DNA from: Gekko japonicus
Taxonomy: Eukaryota
Length of the DNA: 64,000 nucleotides
Reading direction: 5' to 3'
NCBI RefSeq assembly: GCF_001447785.1
Contig: NW_015177038.1
Span: 363,759 to 427,758, forward strand
The position numbers were made by a program, and so were the translations under genes. Position 1 is the stretch's first letter. The number at the start of each line of letters is the position of its first letter. The notes under the pieces were generated by a model. The model made no database searches. It saw only the letters and a list, made by a program, of their open reading frames with translations, and had not been told where the DNA came from. Positions 28,175 to 49,519 of this stretch are shown piece by piece.

Positions 28175-30899
28175 CATAAGAACATAAGAGAAGCCAATTT
28201 TGGATCAGGCCAATGGCCCATCTAGTCCAACACTCTGTCACACAGTGGCCAAAAATACCAGGTGCCATCAGGAGGTCCATCAGTGGGGCCAGGACACTAG
28301 AAGCCCTCCCACTGTTGCCCCCACCCCAAGCACCAAGAATACAGAGCATCACCTGCCCCAGCCTGTGAGTTCCTATCTATACCTTGTGGCTAATAGCAAC
28401 TGATGGACCTCTGCTCCATATGTTTATCCAGTTCCTTCTTGAAGCTGTCCATGCTTGTAGCTGCCCCCACCTCCTGCGGCAGTGAATGCCACATGTTAGT
28501 CACTCTTTGGGTGAAGTACTTCCTTTTATCTGTTCTGACCCGACCGTTCAGCAATTTCATGGAGTGCCCATGAGTTCTTGTATTGTGAGAAAGGGAGAAA
28601 AGTACTTCTTTCTCGACCTGCTCTATCCCATTCATAATCTTATAAACCTCGATCATGTCACCCCTCAGCNNNNNNNNNNNNNNNNNNNNNNNNNNNNNNN
28701 NNNNNNNNNNNNNNNNNNNNNNNNNNNNNNNNNNNNNNNNNNNNNNNNNNNNNNNNNNNNNNNNNNNNNNNNNNNNNNNNNNNNNNNNNNNNNNNNNNNN
28801 NNNNNNNNNNNNNNNNNNNNNNNNNNNNNNNNNNNNNNNNNNNNNNNTATGATACTGGCTGATTTGTTTTCAATTCCCTTCCTAATAATCCCCAGCATAG
28901 CATTGGCCTTTTTTATTGCAGTCACACACTGTCTTGACATTTTAATTGAGTTATCTACTATGACTCCAAGATCTCTCCCTTGGTCAGTCTCTGCCACTTC
29001 AGACCCCATCAACATGTGTATTTATAGTTAGGATTTTTGGCTCCAATGTGCATCACTTTGCACTTGGCCACATTGAACCCCATTAGCCACGTTGACGCCC
29101 ACTCGCCCATCCTCGGCCGATCCCTTTGGAGTGCCTCACAATCCTCACTGGTTCTTACCACCCTGAACAACTTCGTGTCATCCACAAATTTAGCCACTTC
29201 GCTGCTTACTCCCAACTCCAAATCATTAATAAACAAGTTAAAAAGCATCAGACAAAGTACTGATCCCTGCAGTACCCCACTGCTTACCACCCTCCACTAA
29301 GAAAATTGCCCATTTATACTCACTCTCTGTTTCCTATTAATTAGGCAGTTTTTGATACACAAAAGGACGTCCTTTTATCCCGTGACTATTGAGCTTACTT
29401 AGGAGCCTTTGATGAGGAACTTTATCAAAAGCTTTCTGGAAGTCAAGCTAAACAACATCTATTGGGTCCCCCTTGTCCATATGTTTGTTCACTCCCTCAA
29501 AGAACACTAACAAGTTAGTGAGACGAGATCTTCCCTTACAGAACCCATGCTGAGTCTGCCTCAATAGGTTTTGTTCAGCTATGTACCTATTAATTCTTTC
29601 CTTAATAATAGTTTCCAAGTCAGACTGGCCTGTAATTTCCCGGATCTCCTCTGGAACCCTTTTTAAAGATGGGAGTGATGTTAGCTACCTTCTGGTCCTC
29701 AGGAACGGAGGCAGATTTTAATGAAAGATTACATATTTTTGTGAGGAGATCCACAAGTTCACATCTGAGTTCTTTCAGAACTCTCGGATGTATGCCATCC
29801 GGGCCTGGTGATTTATCAGTTTTTAAGTTGTCTATCAGTCATAGGACCTCCTCTCTCGTCACCTCAATTTGATTCAGGTCTCTCAACACTGCTTCCAAAA
29901 TCAGTGGTTCTGGAGTGGGCAAGCACTTCTCATCTTCCACAGTGAAGACAGAGGCAAAAAATGCATTTAGCTTCTCAACAATTTCCCTATCATCCTTCAG
30001 TACTCCTTTTACCCCTTGGTCATCCAAGGGCCCCACTGCCTCCCTGGCTGGTTTCCTACTTCTACTGTATTTGAAGAAAGTTTTATTGTTGGTCTTTATA
30101 TTTTTTTGCTATATGCTCTTCATATTCCTTTTTTGCCTGCCTGATTACAGACTTGCATTTTATTTGCCACAGCCTGTGTTCCCTTTTATAAACCTCACTG
30201 AGACTAGCTTTCTGTCGCTTAAAGGAATCCTTCTTACCTTTTACAGCTTCCATTACTTTGTTAGTTCACCATGCAGGCTTTTTCCTATACCTATTTGTAC
30301 CTTTCCTAATCTGCGGTATATGTTTTTTCTGAGCCTCTAGGATTGTAGTTTTAAATAGTCTCCAAGCTTCCCCAATGGTTTTGACCCTTTCTACTTTTCC
30401 TTTCAGTTTCTTCCTCAAATGTCTCCTCATATCAGAAAAGTTACCCCTTTTAAAGTTAAAACTGGTTATGTCAGTCTTTTTGGCCAATTTCCTATTTATA
30501 CAAATGTTGAACTCAATAACATTATGGTCACTGTTCCCAAGTGGTGCAATCACTTTTACATCTCTCACTGGGTCTTGGGCATTACTTAGGACCAAATCCA
30601 GGATCGCCTCTCCCCTGGTAGGTTCTGTGACCATCTGCTCCATAGCACAGTCATTAAGAGTGTCTAGAAACTCCATCTCTTTTTCCCGACTAGAACACAT
30701 ATTGACCCAATCAATGTGTGGGTAGTTAAAATCACCTATTATGACAAAGTTTTTTTGTCTAGCCGCTATCTTTAATTCATTCATCATTTTATAATCCTCC
30801 TCTACATTTTGATCTGGTGGGCGATAACAAACTCCCAGTGTTAAGCTTCCTTTTGGGCCTGCTATTTCAATCCATAGCATTTCCAGAAGCAAATCCAAT
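28175..30899 (-). mobile_element. 5'-truncated CR1 LINE (degenerate ORF2; contains the assembly gap)
   Basis: APE (GDFNYP, SDHN) and RT fragments, (ttcttatg)n tail; same family as 40355-44697. Confidence 0.95.
28670..28847. other. Assembly gap (178 N)
   Basis: Run of N inside the CR1. Confidence 1.
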
Positions 30900-32463
30900 G
30901 CAGACTTCCCCGTCCACAAGGCAGCAGCCATTCAAGCTCTACAGCATTCTTTCCCAAATATTATAGGAAAGCAGGTTTGGAAAAGATCACAGTGAAGAGG
31001 AAAACCTGGACGGTGTGTGAAAGTACCACAATGCTGTGGGGAACCAGGAAAATAACAGCATCCAAGCTGGGGCAACCACCTCATCTCTAAGGGACCAGCA
31101 TCTCAGAATATTCATGTTCAGAGTTAGATCCTGTGAATAATTTCTGTTAATGGAAGAGGGAAGATGATCTTCCCCCTTCCAATGCAGATGTGCAAACCTT
31201 TGTGTTTCTCCTGGGCATTCCTCCCCCAGTAACTCTTTCAATAGGGCATTTCTGGCTGCAGCAGAAGAGTCAAGGGAGGGAAGTCATACTTCTGTGCATG
31301 GAATTTACATAGGATTAGGGGTGAACACTTAAAAATAATATGGTTATAATTCTGTATTGGAAAGTTGGGAAGGACCCTCAGACAGTCCACAGGTCATTCA
31401 CCTATTAAATTTTAGAAGGCCACTATGTCACTGTCTAGTAGACCTAGCCTATGGATTCCACCCATTAACAATATTTGCCCTTGAAAGTTAAAAGGGCCAA
31501 TGTCCAGCAGACCAGCCGGGGAGTACTCCCTCCTACATAGGTATTCCTGCCTCCCCAACATGATTCCCAACTCTGATATTATCAGAAGTGGGTTGGGGGA
31601 CATATTTTGTGGTATCATATATTGCCAACCAATCTGATGCTGCAAATATTGGGCATTTTATCAGGTCAGCCATATCTGATTGCACTCCCCTACATAGGAT
31701 CCAACTTGATGCTCTTTGAATTCTCCTGGGAGCTGCATTTCATGGACACTGTGTGGGCTGCAGCAGGAGGGGGGGGAGGAGGAAGTTTTTCTCTACTGGG
31801 AAAAGTCGACTTTGGGGAATAGAATTTCACTTCTGGCTTGGATCCAGCAGAGTGTTTCTGTGGGTGGAAGGATTTCAGCCCATGTAGCACACCTTTCTCA
31901 CCTCCCTCTCCAGCCCCAAATGACCCACAAAATGCTGTTGTTGGCATTCCTAGGAACATTGTATTTTGGGGGTGTATTTTGGGCTGCAAGGGGGAGGCAA
32001 GCAGGTTGTACCCTGTAAACAGAAATCCTTTGGACCACAGAAACTCTCTACAGGATCCAAACTCCTGACTGGTATTGAAATTCTTCTGGTCAGTTACTAA
32101 GAAATGTTTATAGTTTTTTTCATGTATATGCCAGCTGAAGCTGCAGTCTGCTATTACAGGCATAAACAGGGCTAATCTATACATACAGCTGTCTTTTATG
32201 TGCTGAAATAGCTTTGTGCTTTCTGCATGACAGATTGCCTCTACATGCTCATCCTACATGATCATCCTTTTATTTGTTTGTTTGTTAGTTATAACATGTA
32301 TGTTCCACTTTTCCTCATGGTTCAAGATGGTTACCTGTGTATATGTACAACTATGTGATAATTTGATTATCCCAATACTTTGAGTTGGATACTGCTAGCA
32401 TCAGTGGAAGGCCATGATGTTTGCTGATCTTCCTGATAACGTCTCATATTTGAACCTAGACTC

Positions 32464-36967: not shown

Positions 36968-39154
36968 TAGGGATGGGCATAAACCAAATTAGGAACTGAA
37001 ATCCACAAACCTTGGTTTGTGGATTCAGTTCTCCCATGAACTGCCCTGTTTTCACGGACGTTCATGAGGTTTGTGGGAGCGATTCATGGGCCACACATGC
37101 TGGCGCCAATGAATCAATTGTCCAGGGAATGGGGGGTGGACTTCTGCAGCCCTTCTGCAGCCTGGAAATACCAATAATGACCCTCCAAAGCTTGATAGGC
37201 ATCACTGGCTGCCAACCAGAGAGCTCCCATTCTGCTCTAAGCCTCTAGCTTGCAGGGGGGTCTGTTCAACTCACACCTGAACCTGTGGCTTCTGTGATTT
37301 AAGAACATAAGAACATAAGAACATAAGAGACGCCAATGTTGGATCAGGCCAAAGGCCCATCCAGTCCAACACTCTGTGTCACACAGTGGCCAGAAATACC
37401 AGTGCCATCAGGAGGTCCAGCAGTGGGGCCAGGACATTAGAAGCCCTCCCACTGTTGACCCCCCCCAAGCACCAAGAAGACAGAGCCTTGTGCTAAGCAA
37501 GTTGTTCTGGAGGCACTTGCTTTGGAGGGAGGGTACTACTCAGTCCCCCAAAGCCAATCTGCTCACAACTTGGAGGACAAGTAGAGGGGCATCCTGGGGA
37601 GGTCCGCTGCAAGTTGGATGCCTCTAGCTTGCAAGGAGGCTGTTCAACACACTCCTTCCCGTTTTGCACATTGGACCCTCAGATCTCCCCCCCCCCCAAG
37701 CCAATCTGCACACAACTTGGAGGTCAGGTAGAGGGGCATCCTGGGGAGGTACGCTGTAAATTTGAAGCCTCTAGCTTGTGCGGGGGACATTCAACACACT
37801 CTCCCCCTTTTGCATTTTGGACCCTAGGATCTCCCCCCCCCAAAAAAAACCCCACTCTGCACACAACTTGGAAGGCAGGTAGAGGGGCATCTTGGGGAAG
37901 TTCACTGTGAGTTTGAAGCCTCTAGCTTGTGCGGGGGACATTCAACACACTCTCCCCCTTTTGCATTTTGGACCCTAGGATCTCCCCCCCCCAAAAAAAA
38001 CCCCACTCTGCACACAACTTGGAGGGCAGTTAGAGGGGCATCCTGAGGAGGTCCACTGCGAGTTGGATGGCTCTAGCTTGCAAGGCCATTTGACACACTC
38101 CTCCCCCTTTTGTACTTTGGACTCTAGGATCTTCCCCTCCCAAGCCAATCTACACATAGCTTGGAGGGCAGATAGAGGGGCATCTTGGGGAGCCTCTAGC
38201 TTGCAGGGGGGACATTCAATACACTCCCCCCCTTTTGCATTTTGGACCCTAGGATCTCCCCCCCCAAAAAAAGCCAATCTGCACACAACTTCGAGGGCAG
38301 TTAGAGGGGCATCATGAGGAGGTCTGCTGTGAGTTGGATGCCTCTAGCTTGCAGGGGGCGCTTGACATACTCCCCCCATTTGCACATTAGACTCTAGGAT
38401 CTTCCCCTCCCAAGCCAATCTGCTCACAACTTGGAGGGCAGGTAGAGGGGCATCCCAGGGAGTTCCGCTGCAAGTTTGATGCTTCTAACTTGCAGGGGGC
38501 TGTTCGACATACTACTTCCCTTTTTTGCACACTGGACCCTGGGAACTTCCCCCCCCCCAAGCCAATCTGCTCACAACTTGGAGTGCAGGTAGACAGGCAT
38601 CCCAGGGAGTTCCGCTGCAAGTTTGATGCCTCTAACTTGCAGGGGGCTGTTCGACATACTACTTCCCTTTTTTGCACACTGGACCCTGGGAACTTCCCCC
38701 CCCAAGCCAATCTGCTCACAACTTGGAGGGCAGGTAGAGGGGCATCCTGGGGAGGTCTGCTGTGAGTTTGATGTGTCTAGCTTGCAGGGGGGCTGTTCAA
38801 CACATTCATTCCCCTTTTGCCCACTGGACCCTGGGATCTTCCCCCCCAAGCCAATCTGCGCACAACTTGGAGGGCAGGTACAGGGGCATCTTGGGGAGGT
38901 CTGCTGTGAGTTTGAAGCCTCTAGCTTGCGTGGGGGACATTCAACACACTCCCCCCCCTTGCACTTTGGATCCTAGGATCTTCCCCCCTTTAAATGGCTT
39001 TAAATGGGATTGCTTTAAGTGGCTTTTGCAAGCTGTGCCATATCACAAACCATTTTGTTAAATGGAAAGTTTCATGGGGGGTTCATGGTTTGTGAGACCT
39101 CACAAACCATGAACCTTCATGAACCTCTATTTTCCCAGGTTATGCCCATCCCTA
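36968..39154. mobile_element. 2.2-kb non-autonomous hAT element with an internal tandem array and a nested CR1 tail (37300-37487)
   Basis: TIR tagggatgggcataa...ttatgcccatcccta, perfect 8-bp TSD gtctctac. Confidence 0.88.
37545..38990. repeat. Tandem array, ~10 units of ~145 bp
   Basis: ccaatctg/ccactctg anchors at 37554, 37701, 37852, 38003, 38145, 38274, 38415, 38562, 38707, 38851. Confidence 0.92.
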
Positions 39155-40350: not shown

Positions 40351-40560
40351 AGCGTAAGAACATAAGAACATAAGACGCCAATGTTGGATCAGGCCAAAGG
40401 CCCATCCAGTCCAACACTCTGTATCACACAGTGGCCAGAAATACCACGTGCCATCAGGAGGTCCACCAGTGGGGCCAGGACATTAGAAGCCTGTTGACCC
40501 CCCCAAGCACCAAGATGACAGAGCATCACTTGCCCCAGAGCCCCTATCTATACCTTGTGG

Positions 40561-43458
40561 CTAATAGCCACTGATGGACCTCTGCTCCATATGCTTATCT
40601 AATTCCCTTTTGAAGCCGTCCATGCTTGTAGCCGCCACCATTTCCTGTGGCAGTGAATTCCATGTGTTAATCACTCTTTGGGTGAAGAAGTACTTCCTTT
40701 TATCCGTTCTAACCCGACCACTCAGCAATTTCATTGAGTGGCCACGAGTTCTTGTATTGTGAGAAAGGGAGAAAAGTACCTCTTTCTCTACCTGCTCTAT
40801 CCCATGCATAATCTTATAAACCTCGATCATGTCACCCCTTAGTCATCATTTCTTCAAGCTAAAGAGCCCTAAGTGCTTTGTCCTTTCCTCATAGGGAAAG
40901 TGTTCCAACCCCTTTATCATTCGAGTTGCCCGTTTCTGCACTTTTTCCAAAGCTATAATATCCTTTTTAAGGTGTGGTGACCAGAACTGCACACAGTATT
41001 CCAAATGAGGTCTCACCATTGATTTATATAGGGGCATTATGATATTGGCTGATCTGTTTACAATACCCTTCCTAATAATCCCCAGCATAGCATTGGCCTT
41101 CTTTATTGCAGTCACACACTGTCTCAACATTTTCAGTGAGTTATCCACTACAACTCCAAGATCTCTCTCTTGATCAGTCTCTGCCAGTTCAGACCCCATC
41201 AATGTGTATTTATATTTAGGATTTTTGGCTCCAATGTGCATCACCTTGCACTTGGCCACATTGAACCCCATTTGCCATGTTGACGCCCACTCGCCCATCC
41301 TTGACAGATCCCCTTGGAGTGCCTCACAATCCTCACTGGTTTTCACCACCCCGAACAACTTTGTATCATCCGCAAATTTAGCCACTTCACTGCTTACTCC
41401 CATCTCCAAATCATTAATGAACAAGTTAAAAAGCAGTGGACCAAGTACTGATCCCTGCGGTACCCCACTGCTTACCACCCTCCACTGAGAAAATTGCCCA
41501 CCTACACTCACTCTCTGTTTTCTATGAACTAGCCAGTTTTTGATCCATAAAAGGACTTGTCCTTCTATCCCATGATTTTTGAGCTTACTTAGGAGCCTTT
41601 GATGAGGAACTTTATCAAAAGCTTTCTGGAAGTCAAGGTAAATAATATCTATTGGATCCCCCTTGTCCACATGTTTGTTCACCCCCTCAAAGAACACTAA
41701 CAGGTTAGTGAGACAAGATCTTCCCTTACAGAAACCGTGCTGAGTCTGCCTCAATAGGTTTTGTTCATCTATGTGCCTACTAATTCTTTCCTTAATAATG
41801 GTTTCCACCAATTTACCCGGTATCGACGTCAGACTGACTGGCCTGTAATTTCCCGGATCTCCTCTGGAACCCTTTTTAAAGATGGGAGTGACATTAGCTA
41901 CCTTCCAATCCTCAGGAATGGAGGCAGATTTTAAGGAAAGATTACATATCTTTGTCAGGAGATCTACAAGTTCACATTTGAGTTCTTTCAGAACTCTCGG
42001 ATGTATGCCATCTGGGCCTGGTGATTTTTCAGTTTTTAAGTTGTCTATCAGTTTTAGGACCTCCTCTCTCATCACCTCAATCTGACTCAGGTCTTCCAAC
42101 ACCCCTCCTGAAATCAGTGGTTCTGGAGTGGGCAAGCACTTCTCATCTTCCACAGTGAAGACGGAGGCAAAAAATGCATTTAGCTTCTCAGCCATTTCCC
42201 TATCATCCTTCAATACTCCTTTTACCCCTTGGTCGTCCAAGGGCCCCACTGCCTCCCTGGCTGGTTTCCTGTTTCTAATGTATTTGAAGAAAGTTTTATT
42301 GTTGGTTTTTACGTTTTTTGCTATATGCTCCTCATATTCCCTTTTTGCCTGCCTGACCTCAGACTTGCATTTTATTTGCCATAGCCTGTGTTCCGTTTTA
42401 TCAGCCTCACTGTGACTAGCTTTCCACTGCTTAAAGGAATTCTTTTTACTTTTTACAGCCTCCATTACTCTGTTTGTTAACCATGCAGGCTTTTTCCTAT
42501 ACCTGTTTGTGCCTTTCCTAACCTGCGGAATATATATTTTTTGAGCTTCTAGGATCGTAGTTTTAAATAGATCCCAAGCTTCCCCAATTGTTTTGACCCT
42601 TTCTACTTTTCCTTTCAGTTTCCTCCCCACGTGTCCCCTCATATCAGAGAAATTACCCCTTTTAAAGTTAAAAATGGTTGTGTGAGTCTTTTTGGCCAAT
42701 TCTCTATTTGTACAAATGATGAACTCAACAACATTATGATCACTGTTTCCAAGCGGTGCAATCACTTTTACATCTCTCACCAGGTCTTGAGTGTTACTTA
42801 GGACCAAATCAAGGATCGCCTCTCCCCTGGTAGGTTCCGTGACCATCTGCTCCATAGCACAGTCATTTAGAGTGTCTAGAAACTCAATCTCTTTTTCCCG
42901 ACTAGAACACATATTGACCCAATCAATGTGTGGGTAGTTAAAATCACCTATTATTACACAGTGTTTTTGTCTAGTTGCTATCTTTAAGGCATTCATCATT
43001 TTATAATCCTCCTCTATCTTTTGATCTGGTGGGCGATAACAAACTCCCAGTGTTAAGTTTCCTTTTGGCCCCCCTATTTCAACCCATAGAACTTCCAGAA
43101 GCGAATCCAATTCACTTAGCCTCTCAATCTTTCTAGACTTTATACCCTCTCTGACATACAGAGCTACCCCACCTCCAACCCTTCCCCCCCTATCCTTCCG
43201 ATATAATATATAACCGGGAATCACTGTGTCCCACTGATTTTCCTCATCCCACCAAGTTTCAGAAATACCCACAATGTCTATTTTTCCCTCCGACACCAAG
43301 CACTCCAACTCCCCGATTTTACCTCGGACACTTCTAGCATTTGTATAGAAACAGCTGTAATTTCCCTTACAAGTTAAGCCTGCATCCTTCCTCTTGCTAT
43401 CTCGAGTCGTTGTCCGGCAGTCCATGTCACCAGCCATGGCCTCTGTGGACAATTTCAA
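40561..43458 (-). pseudogene. CR1 ORF2 (APE endonuclease + reverse transcriptase) with two in-frame TGA stops near the C-terminus
   Basis: YTNARS, SETWW, GDFN, SDH; QHGF, LDFQKAFDKVPH, GVPQGSVLGP, FADD; ...LKK TGA TGA LRGDMIEVYK continues in frame to 40561. Confidence 0.93.
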
Positions 43459-43559
43459 TCCACCTCCCTGTAGAAAAGCAACCGGTACCCCCTCACCTCT
43501 CTCAGATGAGCCAACCCGAACCAGAGACTTTTCATCTCCTGTCGGCTTTCCCCCAATAT

Positions 43560-44468
43560 TCAGTTTAAAAGCTGCTCTGCCACCTTTTTGATTTTAAGTG
43601 CCAGCAGCCTGGTTCCTTCTCGGGACAAGTGGAGACCGTCTCGCCTGTACAGCTCCCTCTTGTTCCAAAAAGTATCCCAGTGCCTAACAAACCTGAACCC
43701 TTCCCCCCTACACCATCGTCTCATCCACGCATTGAGACTCCTGATCTCTGCCTGTCTCTCCGGCCCTGCGCGTGGAACAGGTAACACTTCTGAGAAGGCT
43801 ACCTTGGAGGTCCTGGACCTAAGTTTCCTGCCCAGCAGCCTAAATTTCTCCTCCAGGACCTCACGACTGCATTTCCCCACATCGTTGGTGCCGACATGCA
43901 CCACGACCACTGGCTCCTCCCCAGCACTATCTACCAGCCTATCTAAAACACGCGTAATGTCCGCTACCTTCGCACCAGGCAGGCAAGTCACCATACGGTC
44001 AGTACGCGGGTTCGCCACCCAGCTGTCTACCTGCCTAAGGATCGAATCACCCACTACCAAGAGCCCCCCTCCCACCCTGCTCAGGGATGGTTCCTTGGTG
44101 CAAAAGGAGAGCCGCTCACCAGCTGGGGAAGAGGTCCCTTCTGAGGGCACATTCCCCTTATCCTCAGCATGGTGCCCTGTTTCCCCTAGACCCTCATGCT
44201 CCCTGACAGCAGCGGGGCTGCCAGATCCAGAGTGGGACGAAGCTAACAAGTCCCCGAGAGTCTTTTCTGTGTGCCTAGCTGACTGTCTCTGCTTCTCCAG
44301 GTCAGCCACCTTGGCCTCAAGGGAGCACACACGTTCCCTGAGAACCAGGAGCTCCTTGCACCGAGGACACACCCAAGACTTCTGCCCAGTGGGCAGATAG
44401 TCATACATGTGACACTCCGTGCAAAACACTGGATAGCCCCCAACCCCCTGCTGGCATTCTGGCTTCAT
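43560..44468 (-). CDS. CR1 ORF1p: zinc finger, coiled coil, SGNH/GDSL esterase domain, 302 aa
   Basis: CTECHM...CPRC, heptad LEAKVADLEK, VVGDS, HVGTND, DGLHL. Confidence 0.93.
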   Translation of the reverse strand: MKPECQQGVGGYPVFCTECHMYDYLPTGQKSWVCPRCKELLVLRERVCSLEAKVADLEKQRQSARHTEKTLGDLLASSHSGSGSPAAVREHEGLGETGHHAEDKGNVPSEGTSSPAGERLSFCTKEPSLSRVGGGLLVVGDSILRQVDSWVANPRTDRMVTCLPGAKVADITRVLDRLVDSAGEEPVVVVHVGTNDVGKCSREVLEEKFRLLGRKLRSRTSKVAFSEVLPVPRAGPERQAEIRSLNAWMRRWCRGEGFRFVRHWDTFWNKRELYRRDGLHLSREGTRLLALKIKKVAEQLLN

Positions 44469-44697
44469 AATTCTTTTAAAATAAATAAATATAATCCCCC
44501 TTTTAAACCCTTGGTATTTATGTGGGTTTTGTTATCAAGTCAAATTATTTTACGGGAAAGACAAAGAGCCTAGGGCCTTGTCTTTCTGGCTCTTTTTGGG
44601 CTTCTTACAGCGCCCCTAGTCTAAGAGTCCCTAGGCTAAGAGCCACAGGCAAAGAGCCCTTTAGCTCACCCTTCGGCTCGTGCCAGAGGCTCGTGCC

Positions 44698-45142
44698 ATT
44701 TCAACCCATAGAATTTCCAGAAGCGAATCCAATTCTCTTAGCCTCTCTATCTTTCTGGACTTTATACCCTCTCTGACATACAGAGCCACCCCACCTCCAA
44801 CCCTTCCCCCCCCCATCCTTCCAATATAATATATAGCCGGGAATCACCGTATCCCACTGATTTTCCTCATCCCACCAAGTTTCTGAAATACCCACAATGT
44901 CTATTTTTCCCTCCAACACCAAGTGCTCCAACTCCCCGATTTTACCTCAGACACTTCTAGCAAGCCTGCAACCTTCCTCTTGCTATCTCGAGACCTTGTC
45001 AGGCAGTCCATGTCACTAGCCATGGTCTCAGTGGACAATTTCAATCGACTGCCCTGTAGAAAAGCAACAGGTACCCCCTCATCTCTCTGAGATGAGCCAA
45101 CCCGAACCAGAGACTTTTCATCTCCTTTCGGCTTTCCCCCAA
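44698..45142 (-). mobile_element. Internal CR1 fragment (start of ORF2) abutting the 5' end of the full-length copy
   Basis: Matches 43076-43557 with a ~40-bp deletion. Confidence 0.9.
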
Positions 45143-45494
45143 GCATACTTTTAGCACAGCACTTGATTGCCATGTCAGACAAGACCGTCTTGGTGAACTC
45201 TTACTTTTGTGATTCAATGATTTTATTCTGTTTTAATCTGTTTTAATCTTGTTTTATATGTGGGCATTGTTGCCCTCTTGTAAGCCACCCTGAGCCCACT
45301 CGCGGGGAGGGCGGGGTAAAAATACAAATAAATAAATAAATAAATGGCTTAAGGACCTACAACGTCTAGGGCAGAGTCAGCCACTCCTCATTGCTGAGTA
45401 GTCTTTCTCCTTGCGCAATGATGACCTCCAAGGCTGCTCTGACCAGGGCGGTCTTCTGCTCCACCAAATGCTCAAGTGGAGTTCCAGGGAGCAC

Positions 45495-45698: not shown

Positions 45699-46894
45699 GT
45701 GAGCACTGATGTTGCTAATCAAGCAGTGCTTTGGCACGTCTGTCAGAACCTGCTTCTCACACGGCAGATGGATAGCCTTCACACTTCATGAAAAGTGACT
45801 TGTAATATTCCAGCAGTTCTGGAGCAGATGCTGGAAATCACATGCCTGCAGAACTCAAACCCAGGACATCCCTCACTGCAGATGTAGGAAGTGAGCCACA
45901 CAGTAAATGTACTTCAGGCCTACAGCCTTTGCTACTGCCCTAATATTTGTGCCTTAACTCTGGTTGAGGACAGCCGGATATCTTTCAGGCCAGGGATCTC
46001 CATGAGATTCTTCTCCACAGATAGTAATGCTCTTCTGGGGATATAGAGGTCATTTCGGGGGGATTGCGGGGGATCGCAGTTCCCCTGGGTGAGGTACGGG
46101 GGGCAGGGCACATGACGAAGCCCCACCCCCTGCTTCCGGCCGCCCCGCTTCCGGCCCTCATTCAGCCAGGAGGAGGCAGGAGAAGAGGGAGGGTAAGTTC
46201 CTTCCTCCCTGCCTCTCCCCACCCCTGCCTACCTGGGGCCAGGGAGGGCCTTTGCGGGGCTTCCTTGCACTCCCGCCGGCCTTGCAGGTCCACCGCCGGT
46301 TCCCTGATGGGGCTCGGCAGTGGAGCTGCAAGGCCGGCGGCAGTGGCCGGGACCGTTGGGGGTGGGGGGTGTGGCCTTATGACACACTTCCAGTGATGTC
46401 AGGGGGTGTGGCCTTATGACACACTTCCGGTGATGTCAGGGGGTGTGGCATATGCTAATGAATTATGCTGTCCTTCCTGAGCTCTTCCCCTAGCTCTTTT
46501 TCTACGAAACGACCCCTGTGGGGATATACCAGGAGACGCAGTCCCAGAGATATGTTGGTCCCAGACCATTTAGGGCCTTGAAGGTTAGTACCAAAAGCTT
46601 GAATCTGATCCAATATTCAACCTGGAGCTGGTGCAGCTGGCGAAGTACCGGTTGAATGTGTGCTGTCAGGGGGGTTCCAGTAAGGACCCAAGCTGCTGCT
46701 TTCTGGACCAGTTGTAATTTCTGAGTCAGCCTCAAGGGTAGCCTTGCATGGAGCAAATTACAGTAGTCTAACCTAGAGGTGACCATTGCATGGATTACTG
46801 TGACTAGGTCAGGGTGAGACTGAAAGGGGGCCAGTTGCCTAATCTGGCGCAGCTGGAGAAACGCCAGTCTAGCAACATTTGTGATCTGGGCTTC

Positions 46895-47951
46895 TGTGGA
46901 GAAATGCCTTGCCACCTGGAAGGTTGGCGAGCAGGCTTTAAAAATTTCTTCCTCTGAGCTAGAAACAAGCAGGAAGGGGGGAGGAAATAAGCCCATAGCA
47001 TTCCAGAAGCACCTGAGCTACCTCTTTAGAAATGCTAATAGGTCTGGCAGAAGAGACAATGCTCCCTTCTCCAGGAAGGAAACATAGTTGTGCTAGACCA
47101 GCCCCAGGGACTATCTCTAGGAATGACCTGGAGATTTCCCGGAATGCCTTCCAGGAGGGCTCCCAGGATGCACCTACATGTCCCAGAATGCACCTGAGTG
47201 TCCCAGGGTCCACCTGTGTGACCTGGGCAGACCAGGTCAAAAGGGGTGAAGAGAGTGATGTAAAATGGGTGGAGTCAGAGGTTATATAAAAGTGTTTGAT
47301 CCAAGGAGCAAGGCTGTGTGCTGACTCTTGGAAGGGAACAGACCTGGTAGTGTCAAGGTGGGCGGCAAGGGGGGGGGGGGGATGTGGCCCAGCCCACTGG
47401 CTGCAAGGAGCCTGAGATAATGGGACATCTTTAGAATGTTTTGCAACTTTCTAAGTTTGTAAGTATCTACTCTGATTGTGGCATCTAGTTGGAGTAAGTT
47501 TTAGAACCAGGGAAAGAAGGATGCATTTATAACCAACTTTTCTCTTTTCTTCCGTGGGCTGAACTGTTGTTGTGATTAAGTGTGATTGAACTTTCTTTTT
47601 AATAAATCCTTTTCTATATTGGATGTGGCCCTAAGTCTCTGTACCACATAGTCCTCCAGCTGCTTGGACATGCTATTAATTTGACAGAGGGCCCCCAGAT
47701 TGGGAAGAAAGCAGTGAAGGCACCCATTGCCAATCCCCCTAGGGGAAACCCAAAGTTGCATTTGGTCTCTGTGGTAACCAGGTGCTGGGTAGCAGGAGAT
47801 CTTGAGGCCTGGCCTCAGAACTGGGAAGGCGGGTCGAGAGTCCTTATTCAGGACCCCTAAACTGAGCAGGTGGTGGCAGCTCACCCTAGTGGCAGGAAGT
47901 GGAACAGTGCAGAACAGGGTCTGTAAGTCAGAGCAGGTCTGCTTCATCACA
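46895..47951 (+). mobile_element. Solo LTR, 1057 bp (Gypsy/Gmr1-like termini)
   Basis: TGTG...CACA ends, TSD gcttc/gcctc, TATA at ~47283, aataaa at 47601; interrupts L2 at SMEA|QI. Confidence 0.75.
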
Positions 47952-48260
47952 GCCTCCATCGATAAGGAGGCATCCAGAAGCACACCCAGCTTCCTGGCGG
48001 TCAGTACCAGTGTTAGAGGTACACTGTCAAGAGCCGGAAGTTGGCACCCCATCCCTGAATTCCCTCTACCCAGTGACAGAACCTCCGTCTTTGATGGATT
48101 CAATCTCAGCTGGCTCTGTTTCAACCATCCAACCATGGCCTCCAGCCCCTCAGCCAAAATAGCTGGTGCCGCATCCTGCCAGCCATGCATCAACAGATAC
48201 AGCTGGGTGTCATCTGCATACTGATGGCAACCCAGCCTGAAACTCCACACCAGTTGGGAG

Positions 48261-48659
48261 TGTCGGATGTTAATATCCAGCTGTCAGATCATGGTGATCT
48301 ATGTGTCAGCAGGCAAGCTGCTGGTAACAGATCCTGACCGGTTGAGACCTGATAAGGGATGAGGTCAGTGACAATGAGTCAGCACTTAGCTGATTGGACG
48401 CTGTATGTATATAACTGGACAAGTACTGCTCTGTAAATTCTCTTCTCTTGTTATGGTGATTGGCGGAGCACTTTGTCAGTGGACTGTAAATATTGTAAAT
48501 AAATCTGTATATAGTTTACCACAGGACTGTCTTGGTGTGGTGCTATACAGAACTTACTCTGCAGTGAGTGCTGGTGAGTGCTGGAGTGGCTGGAAAAGTC
48601 CTGGTGGCTGGCTACTGCTGGCAGAGGCAGGCAGGCTGTCCTACGCGCACCGTGCAACA
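48261..48659 (+). mobile_element. Solo LTR, 399 bp
   Basis: TGT...ACA ends, perfect 5-bp TSD gggag, TATA and aataaa. Confidence 0.82.
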
Positions 48660-49519
48660 GGGAGAGGGGGCACATATAGATGCTGAACAACACTGAAGAG
48701 AGGATTGCCCCCTGAGGGGCCCCACATACAAAGAGGGGTGGCCTTGAAGTGGCTTACCTGATTTCTCCAGGGTCAGGGACAGAAGGTAGCGCTACCCTCT
48801 GTCCCTGACCCTGAAGAAATGAGGTAAGCCCCTTCAAGGCAACCACATGAATTCCCACATTAGCATGGGATTACAGCATATGGGATCACCGCATACGTTG
48901 GGAGAACATCTGCCATTCAAATGCCAAGGAAATAATAAGGAATTTTAAAATCTCTCCTGTACAATCCTCAGTTTTCTCATGCATAAAATTATATTAATTT
49001 TCTTATCCAGTGCATGGTATTACCAAGATAACTTATCAGAGGCCTCAGCTATAATAGGTCTCTAGTCACAAATAGGTAATATATACCCAGGATACTTTAC
49101 TTCCAATTTGTTAAAGCAATGCTTTGGTGAAAAACAAATAAACAAACATGCCCCAAAGTGTAATAGGAGATAATTGCATCAGAGTTTGAGTTTGTTCCCT
49201 CTGTAATTCCCTGGGGAGATGATCTTTTCAAACTTAAATACTCTCAAAAGCCAAGAGTTGAATAAATTAAGAAGTGAACCTTTACTCATTGTTTCTTTGG
49301 GGAATGGCACTCTATCCAAACTATTTTAGACGTTCTTCAAAAACATCATACAGTCTACATTTTTAATCATTGTATGATATTGAATTCTAAGAACCTAGGG
49401 ACTTTTGGTTGCCATTTTATGGACATTTCCCTGGGAGTTTCACAGCACCTATTGCAATGACCTTCATTACCAGCCATAGAACAGTTAGTCTAATACAATT
49501 CATATTTTGTTTTTTGCAT

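Follow-up and report, generated by a model that had tools for sequence, protein, structure and literature searches.

Introduction

The coronavirus ORF1a/1b signal consists of the slippery sequence U_UUA_AAC and a pseudoknot, and in retroviruses and LTR retrotransposons the -1 frameshifting between gag and pol joins a structural ORF to a reverse transcriptase (RT) ORF at a fixed low ratio. The RNA structures that stimulate frameshifting usually start 5-9 nt after the slippery site. CR1 is a dominant retroelement of reptiles and birds, and in place of poly(A) its 3' end carries short 8-nt repeats in tandem.

According to the accessible part of a review, the APE-type non-LTR retrotransposons TRE5-A and TRE3-A of Dictyostelium need a -1 frameshift, so frameshifting in a LINE has precedent, although these elements belong to another clade and carry another ORF1. 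In the bicistronic LINE RNAs of human L1 and silkworm SART1, ORF2 depends on the translation of ORF1, as stated in the accessible portions of PMC2881922 and PMC3894237. Both elements make a separate ORF2 protein, L1 through unconventional reinitiation and SART1 through coupling at UAAUG, whereas the CR1 element described here keeps a slippery heptamer and a fixed -1 overlap. A 2013 commentary (PMC3894237) calls LINE ORF2 translation 'an interesting-and important-question', and its available text considers reinitiation, IRES and 2A, but not frameshifting.

The ORF1 type IVB of CR1 subgroup 7, which combines a zinc finger/leucine zipper with an esterase, and the esterase ORF1 of ZfL2-1 have the same ORF1 architecture as our element (accessible parts of PMC4120745 and PMC3905857). 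The word 'frameshift' is absent from the main text, as far as available, of these two papers and of PMC11303007, and 'CR1' is absent from 300,000 of the 449,034 characters of a large frameshifting review. We found no report of CR1 frameshifting in the literature searched, which mostly excluded subscription papers and supplements, and an earlier proposal is possible.

Results

A CR1-type element with a slippery heptamer at its ORF1/ORF2 junction

We analyzed a stretch of 64,000 nt from contig NW_015177038.1 of Gekko japonicus, referred to as the window. The element and its immediate neighbor comprise the following features, in window positions.

40355-44697, minus strand: full-length copy of a CR1-type LINE from a young, abundant family, with TTCTTATG-type repeats at the 3' end
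43560-44468, minus strand: ORF1, 302 aa, with an N-terminal Cys motif and coiled region, then an SGNH/GDSL esterase, and a C-terminus of Leu-Asn-stop
43563-43569, minus strand: slippery heptamer U_UUA_AAC, in the X_XXY_YYZ register with ORF1
43560-43562, minus strand: ORF1 stop, directly 3' of the heptamer; TGA in this copy, whereas other lineages have TAA or TAG
40561-43563, minus strand: ORF2 region, read in -1 and encoding APE endonuclease and RT; normal stop at 40563-40561
40848-40846, minus strand: premature ORF2 stop of the window copy
43342-43562, minus strand: linker of 221 nt that separates the heptamer from the Asn codon of the endonuclease (43341) and is open in -1
43435-43437, minus strand: first in-frame ORF2 ATG, not conserved
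44698-45142, minus strand: 5'-truncated, decayed fragment of the same CR1 family, 86% identical, starting after heptamer and stop

Pfam assigns the GDSL esterase family PF13472 to ORF1 and PF03372, PF14529 and PF00078, that is endonuclease and RT, to ORF2, and it detects no protease domain in either. Both the Cys motif and the SGNH esterase of ORF1 are present by alignment, by Pfam and by a match to 4c1b, an 'ORF1-encoded protein' that is the closest solved relative of the ORF1 profile (E 3e-45). The TTCTTATG repeats terminate the window copy as well as the copies L377 and L378. We describe the element as an esterase-type LINE of CR1 type; this label comes from its architecture and its 3' end, and its assignment to CR1 rather than L2 is in part our assumption.

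The family is young, as the 431-nt junction is 100% identical in 40 of the 40 candidates scored (of 1,007). Six young copies were hand-picked from the match lists, and both frames are intact in three of them, with 1,002 open -1 codons counted from the heptamer and a predicted fusion of 1,302 aa; one of the others has an early stop, and two are truncated or shifted. The ORF1-ORF2 fusion of ~1,300 aa envisaged by an earlier, sequence-only reading of this DNA is thus predicted for intact copies, but the ORF2 of the window copy itself stops early. The same reading took ~45090-45142 for a second copy. It is part of the 5'-truncated fragment of the same family (45142-44698), which starts just past the heptamer and stop and therefore lends the signal no independent support.

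Other repeats lie in the window. The fragment abuts the 5' end (44697) of the full-length copy in the same orientation. Sequences of this CR1 family or its close kin, 5'-truncated, 87-92% identical and without the junction, also occupy 28175-28668, 28848-30902 and 37308-37486, all on the minus strand. An array of ~10 copies of a 150-nt unit, 60-94% alike, spans 37554-39001, and decayed frames at 46502-48753 resemble, by eye, pieces of another LINE reverse transcriptase.

As the sequence-only reading had noted, the heptamer T_TTA_AAC at 43569-43563 of the minus strand lies in the ORF1 frame immediately 5' of the TGA. Starting at 43593, the -1 frame stays open across the endonuclease and RT (up to the stop at 40846), and the first ORF2 ATG, at 43437, follows 42 codons on, in the context gccATGg. 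These 42 stop-free codons are weak evidence by themselves (P about 0.08 in shuffles). Canonical slippery heptamers occur at 4 of the 1,211 in-register positions of the window element, none of them the junction heptamer; this rarity, taken with retention in 11 of 11 lineages, places the heptamer beyond chance.

Conservation of the heptamer at the nucleotide level

Lineages A, to which the window copy belongs, to G were drawn from the Gekko japonicus genome by ORF1-anchored searches, an upstream pattern, a junction pattern and DNA searches. Lineages M1-M4, at ~30% ORF1 protein identity, came from metagenome and contaminant contigs and are likely invertebrate, since a gene model that bears the name of the tubeworm Lamellibrachia contains a related esterase. 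Copies were sorted by the nucleotide similarity of their junctions to seed copies that carry the heptamer. Lineage G was first reached with a junction pattern that contains the heptamer and is biased in this respect, whereas the other ten were found independently of it. Metagenome and prokaryote-genome contigs provided 59 loci, 25 of which were assigned to M1-M4; the remaining 34, comprising heptamer-less esterase ORF1s (L122, L124, L126), bacterial GDSL-like genes, duplicates and sequences that were too short or weak, were excluded.

TTTAAAC is the commonest heptamer in all 11 lineages, the seven from the genome and the four M lineages, and it is exact in 169 of 212 distinct copies, with the remainder scattered as in decayed copies. 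The distinct copies with the exact heptamer are distributed as follows.

Lineages A, F, G and B: 25/26, 33/45, 19/29 and 34/40
Lineages C, D and E: 22/27, 13/15 and 5/5
Lineages M1, M2, M3 and M4: 2/2, 4/5, 11/16 and 1/2

The ORF1 ends of the three main lineage groups are ~27-36% identical to one another. From -6 to +1 every position is the same in all 11 lineages, and position -7 takes all four letters. The residue before the Leu can be L, A, H, Y, F or C, and its codon always ends in T. A codon control on 10 lineages, with G omitted for its poor upstream alignment (all 11 lineages gave only 6 columns), covered 16 conserved ORF1 columns with a choice of codon, and only this Leu and this Asn use a single codon in all 10. 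Fixed synonymous codons, together with a fixed T before a varying residue, indicate that the constraint acts on nucleotides. Free variation at the synonymous positions of the heptamer, which the earlier reading had proposed to look for across the family, was not found: these positions are invariant. When this genome was searched for an esterase family that lacks the LN end, family A alone came back, and a search of viral contigs found no relatives.

Reading frame of the linker and start codons of ORF2

From the heptamer to the endonuclease Asn the 11 lineages measure 221, 221, 233, 182, 167, 122, 128, 125, 125, 125 and 110 nt. These are eight values between 110 and 233 nt, all of them 2 mod 3, and at the level of alignment columns ORF2 is consequently in the -1 frame in 11 of 11 lineages. 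When copies are counted one at a time, -1 is the most frequent frame class in 10 lineages, and in lineage G it is found in 0 of 4 measurable single copies. Stops that are the commonest codon of their column number 3 in the -1 frame of all linkers versus 37 and 64 in the other two frames. The three belong to F and C, which are old families, and show the TGA/CAA/CGA mixes typical of CpG decay; apart from these CpG-type columns the -1 frame, checked from heptamer to ORF2, has no stop as its commonest codon. Synonymous changes are not in excess in the linker (24 synonymous vs 94 non-synonymous in -1, compared with 13/92 and 26/73 in the two alternative frames), which suggests that it behaves as a loose spacer. 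In the lineage C linker (for example in L186, L193 and L198), an insertion of ~21 nt common to 9 of 27 copies would preserve the -1 frame.

Instead of slipping, ribosomes might terminate and reinitiate as in L1, SART1 or caliciviruses, restarting in the -1 frame at an AUG, at a CUG that overlaps the stop or at any codon, and producing a separate ORF2 protein. An in-frame AUG is indeed available within the linker in lineages A, F, B, C and E, and the sequence-only reading had named the strong context of ATG 43437 as a caveat. This caveat is weakened: the codon is ATG in 15 and GTG in 8 of the 26 distinct family A copies, the AUG positions vary by lineage, and in 6 of 11 lineages (G, D and M1-M4) no in-frame ATG precedes the catalytic endonuclease Asn. 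Stop-start reinitiation uses an AUG that overlaps the stop or lies within about 20 nt of it, as described in the accessible part of PMC10275272, and the commonest-codon ATG nearest to an ORF1 stop is 32 nt away (lineage B), outside that distance. Given that L1 ORF2 initiation is described as AUG-independent (PMC5009743, in the portion available), a missing AUG alone proves nothing, and the use of near-cognate CUG has been reported for TURBS elements (PMC10275272, same part). The -1 codon overlapping the ORF1 stop is CTG in A, G, B, D and E, as such a restart could exploit, but CTA in F, C and M1-M4, so that M1-M4 have neither an AUG nor an overlapping CUG. TURBS elements are moreover located upstream of the stop, going by the same part of PMC10275272, whereas the G-run conserved here is downstream. 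Reinitiation would also leave unexplained why seven nucleotides are invariant and their synonymous positions fixed. We therefore regard reinitiation as improbable.

Breadth at the protein level and a clade with different endings

Of 87 ORF1 homologues, the tail is complete in 68, of which 52 end in LN. The named relatives with this end include turtles, coelacanth, a mormyrid fish and rays. The only named protein from a lizard has LK instead. Of the best 150 representatives, 83 have a complete tail, which is LN in 50, GN in 8 (7 QGN and 1 AGN), KN in 1 and something else in 24, with a slight bias towards LN matches because the profile used contained the LN end. Given these 24 of 83, the signal is not universal among esterase ORF1s, and the esterase ORF1s P0036 and P0037 and those at loci L122, L124 and L126 have neither the LN end nor the heptamer.

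In a tree of 66 esterase domains, from which the tail was left out, 8 of 9 GN rows and the KN row fall in one clade of 12, with support of 95/92 and a position among LN clades; two groups lack the signal. At the level of protein, the Q-G-N ends of this sister clade would fit G_GGA_AAC and the KN end would fit A_AAA_AAC. The residues found before GN, namely Q, A and S, all permit a G-ending codon, as G_GGA_AAC requires (protein sequences only). A stingray gene model (P0235) runs from the esterase through F-K-L into the endonuclease, which is the -1 frame reading of the heptamer. Longer proteins, a weak test, contained no full-length fusion; the two matches were both gene models that join the esterase to something else.

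Several relatives turned up in unexpected places. The plant-labelled protein P0020 is 71% identical to the ORF1 esterase and continues into a CR1-like endonuclease, probably through contamination or mislabelling. Pieces of CR1-type LINEs occur in Metamycoplasmataceae MAG contigs (L245-L251, L253-L256, L259) and on short Labedella and Aeromicrobium scaffolds (L252, L257), and animal DNA contamination is the likely source in both cases. In the available part of PMC4120745, esterase-type ORF1 is said to be found only in vertebrate CR1 and L2 groups; P0038-P0077, P0236 and M1-M4 place an esterase-type ORF1 beside an APE endonuclease in invertebrate-like sequences.

The heptamer might have been kept for a different reason, as a C-terminal Leu-Asn motif or as a DNA or RNA binding site, with the -1 relation simply inherited. 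The near invariance of the Leu-Asn dipeptide would agree with this, as would the linker, which is without protein-level constraint, and the shared ancestry of the lineages. However, a protein motif would permit other Leu and Asn codons, as the 14 other control columns do, and would not fix the preceding T, and a binding site would neither hold eight linker lengths at 2 mod 3 nor predict the GN and KN endings. We thus consider this explanation very unlikely.

RNA reads across the junction

The whole junction is covered by three raw RNA runs (X19, X20 and X21) and by one contig set. Both mate orientations are about equal in the raw libraries, which consequently give neither the strand nor full-length element RNA. 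Three reads in X19 skip the 56 nt from 43528 to 43583, with GT..AG ends on the coding strand, and join the flanks in frame. A joining of the ORFs at the RNA level, either through a polymerase that slips on the T/A run or through excision of this GT..AG segment (43583-43528), could draw on these reads but is highly improbable. The skip makes up ~0.2% of a local depth of ~1,560-1,700 and is absent from X20 and X21. Its joint carries 5 letters of microhomology, which would be expected of a deleted genomic copy or of a template switch. The skip also deletes the heptamer and so cannot account for the conservation of the heptamer, and no indel at the heptamer reaches 2% among the RNA rows listed (rarer events are possible).

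Downstream RNA structure and the G-run

The sequence-only reading had proposed that an 8-nt spacer leads to an H-type pseudoknot or to a long alternative stem. The features that we find past the heptamer are the following.

43550-43554, minus strand: G-run, after a spacer of 8 nt; candidate stimulator or conserved Gly codon
43516-43545, minus strand: predicted hairpin H1, from +17 nt after the heptamer; kept in A, F and G
43492-43510, minus strand: predicted hairpin H2, from +52; changes on both sides among A, F and G

Eight nucleotides reach the G-run (43554-43550), and the first strand of the proposed stem, AGCCGAC, begins only after 15. Both stems of the pseudoknot share U43509, which leaves no room for loop 3. 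Across 40 A/F/G copies the proposed pairs form in 64% of cells (52% for stem 1 and 76% for stem 2), and lineages F and G have lost the long alternative stem. As stem 1 breaks in relatives and the stems share one base, this pseudoknot is unlikely to be the stimulator.

The 93 nt past the heptamer fold with a z of -1.92, and 7 of 200 shuffles were as good. In 40 hand-picked A/F/G copies, 83% of the H1 and H2 cells are paired and 43 changes are two-sided; H2 occupies the strand assigned to stem 2 of the proposed pseudoknot. None of 500 shuffles scored as high for H1 and H2, a result that gives no probability because the structure was derived from the same related sequences, and the A/F/G consensus fold is weak (RNAalifold, -1.67 kcal/mol). 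No stable pseudoknot or stem-loop is conserved 5-9 nt downstream of the heptamer; the hairpins that are kept start at +17 and are seen in A, F and G only. Lineages B-E and M1-M4 show no unusual fold, with z between -1.5 and +0.7 (one copy each, by a pseudoknot-blind method and with decay possible). An Rfam scan of 43300-45300 gave 5 matches, all far below the gathering score.

The G-run is the only downstream feature common to all lineages. It mostly has 4-6 G after a spacer of 8-11 nt, and the G at +12 and +13 are kept in all lineages. In the trans-frame peptide it also encodes an invariant Gly, as GGG or GGA. The G-run may have a role in the RNA. The lineages share no local pairing partner for it, since a good nearby one exists only in B and the best partners elsewhere lie at unrelated positions. 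In lineage B (for example L060 and L184; +4 to +55), by eye, the G-run can pair with CAUCCCC ~40 nt further on and the spacer can pair with a loop stretch, so that this lineage may have a pseudoknot of its own.

Discussion

Comparison of 11 lineages suggests that programmed -1 frameshifting at a conserved U_UUA_AAC joins ORF1 to ORF2 in this CR1-type LINE, a reading to which we give a probability of roughly 0.8. In this respect the proposal made earlier for the window copy has gained strong comparative support, although the specific H-type pseudoknot that came with it is unsupported. A minority of ribosomes would slip back by one base at U_UUA_AAC and then read on into ORF2, with tRNA-Leu and tRNA-Asn re-pairing from UUA/AAC to UUU/AAA according to the established X_XXY_YYZ rule, and the junction peptide would read ...EQLLN-LNIGGKP. 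The products would be mostly free ORF1 protein and, at a low rate, an ORF1-ORF2 fusion of ~1,300 residues, which is likely to stay uncut given that neither ORF has a protease domain in Pfam. Slippage may thereby set a high ratio of ORF1 to ORF2 and tether the endonuclease-RT to its own ORF1 partner, as in Gag-Pol.

Judged from sequence, the signal would work like the -1 signals of coronaviruses and gag-pol, but without a canonical stimulator. As in coronavirus ORF1a/1b, the heptamer is U_UUA_AAC in the same register, and the polymerase is encoded in -1. The CR1 signal differs in the stop directly after the heptamer, in the kept G-run and in its LINE host, and we found no conserved pseudoknot. 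The likeness to gag-pol is that a structural ORF and an RT ORF would be joined by a -1 shift, which for CR1 is proposed from sequence. In contrast to gag-pol, CR1 is a non-LTR element with an APE endonuclease, its ORF1 is an SGNH esterase rather than Gag, and no protease was found. Our best guess for the stimulator is the G-run that follows after 8-11 nt, assisted by the stop codon and, in A, F and G, by H1 and H2. With no pseudoknot and a fixed G-run, the stimulator would be an unusual one.

A broader and more tentative reading, which we find possible but doubtful, is that a Gag-Pol-like fusion is produced without a stable RNA structure by esterase-type CR1 LINEs of animals ranging from invertebrates to amniotes, that the G-run recruits a protein or a distant RNA, and that the sister clade has swapped the heptamer for G_GGA_AAC. 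If so, animal genomes would hold an ancient and widespread recoding signal with an unusual kind of stimulator. New in this work are the failed test of the pseudoknot, the G-run, the hairpins H1 and H2, the codon control and the GN/KN clade.

If frameshifting at this heptamer is true, it would answer how CR1-type LINEs translate their reverse transcriptase. The active enzyme would bear ORF1 at its N-terminus, annotations that start ORF2 at the first AUG would be wrong, and impossible for the AUG-less families, and the native junction would have to be kept in retrotransposition assays. A retrovirus-like expression strategy would then be ancient in animal LINEs.
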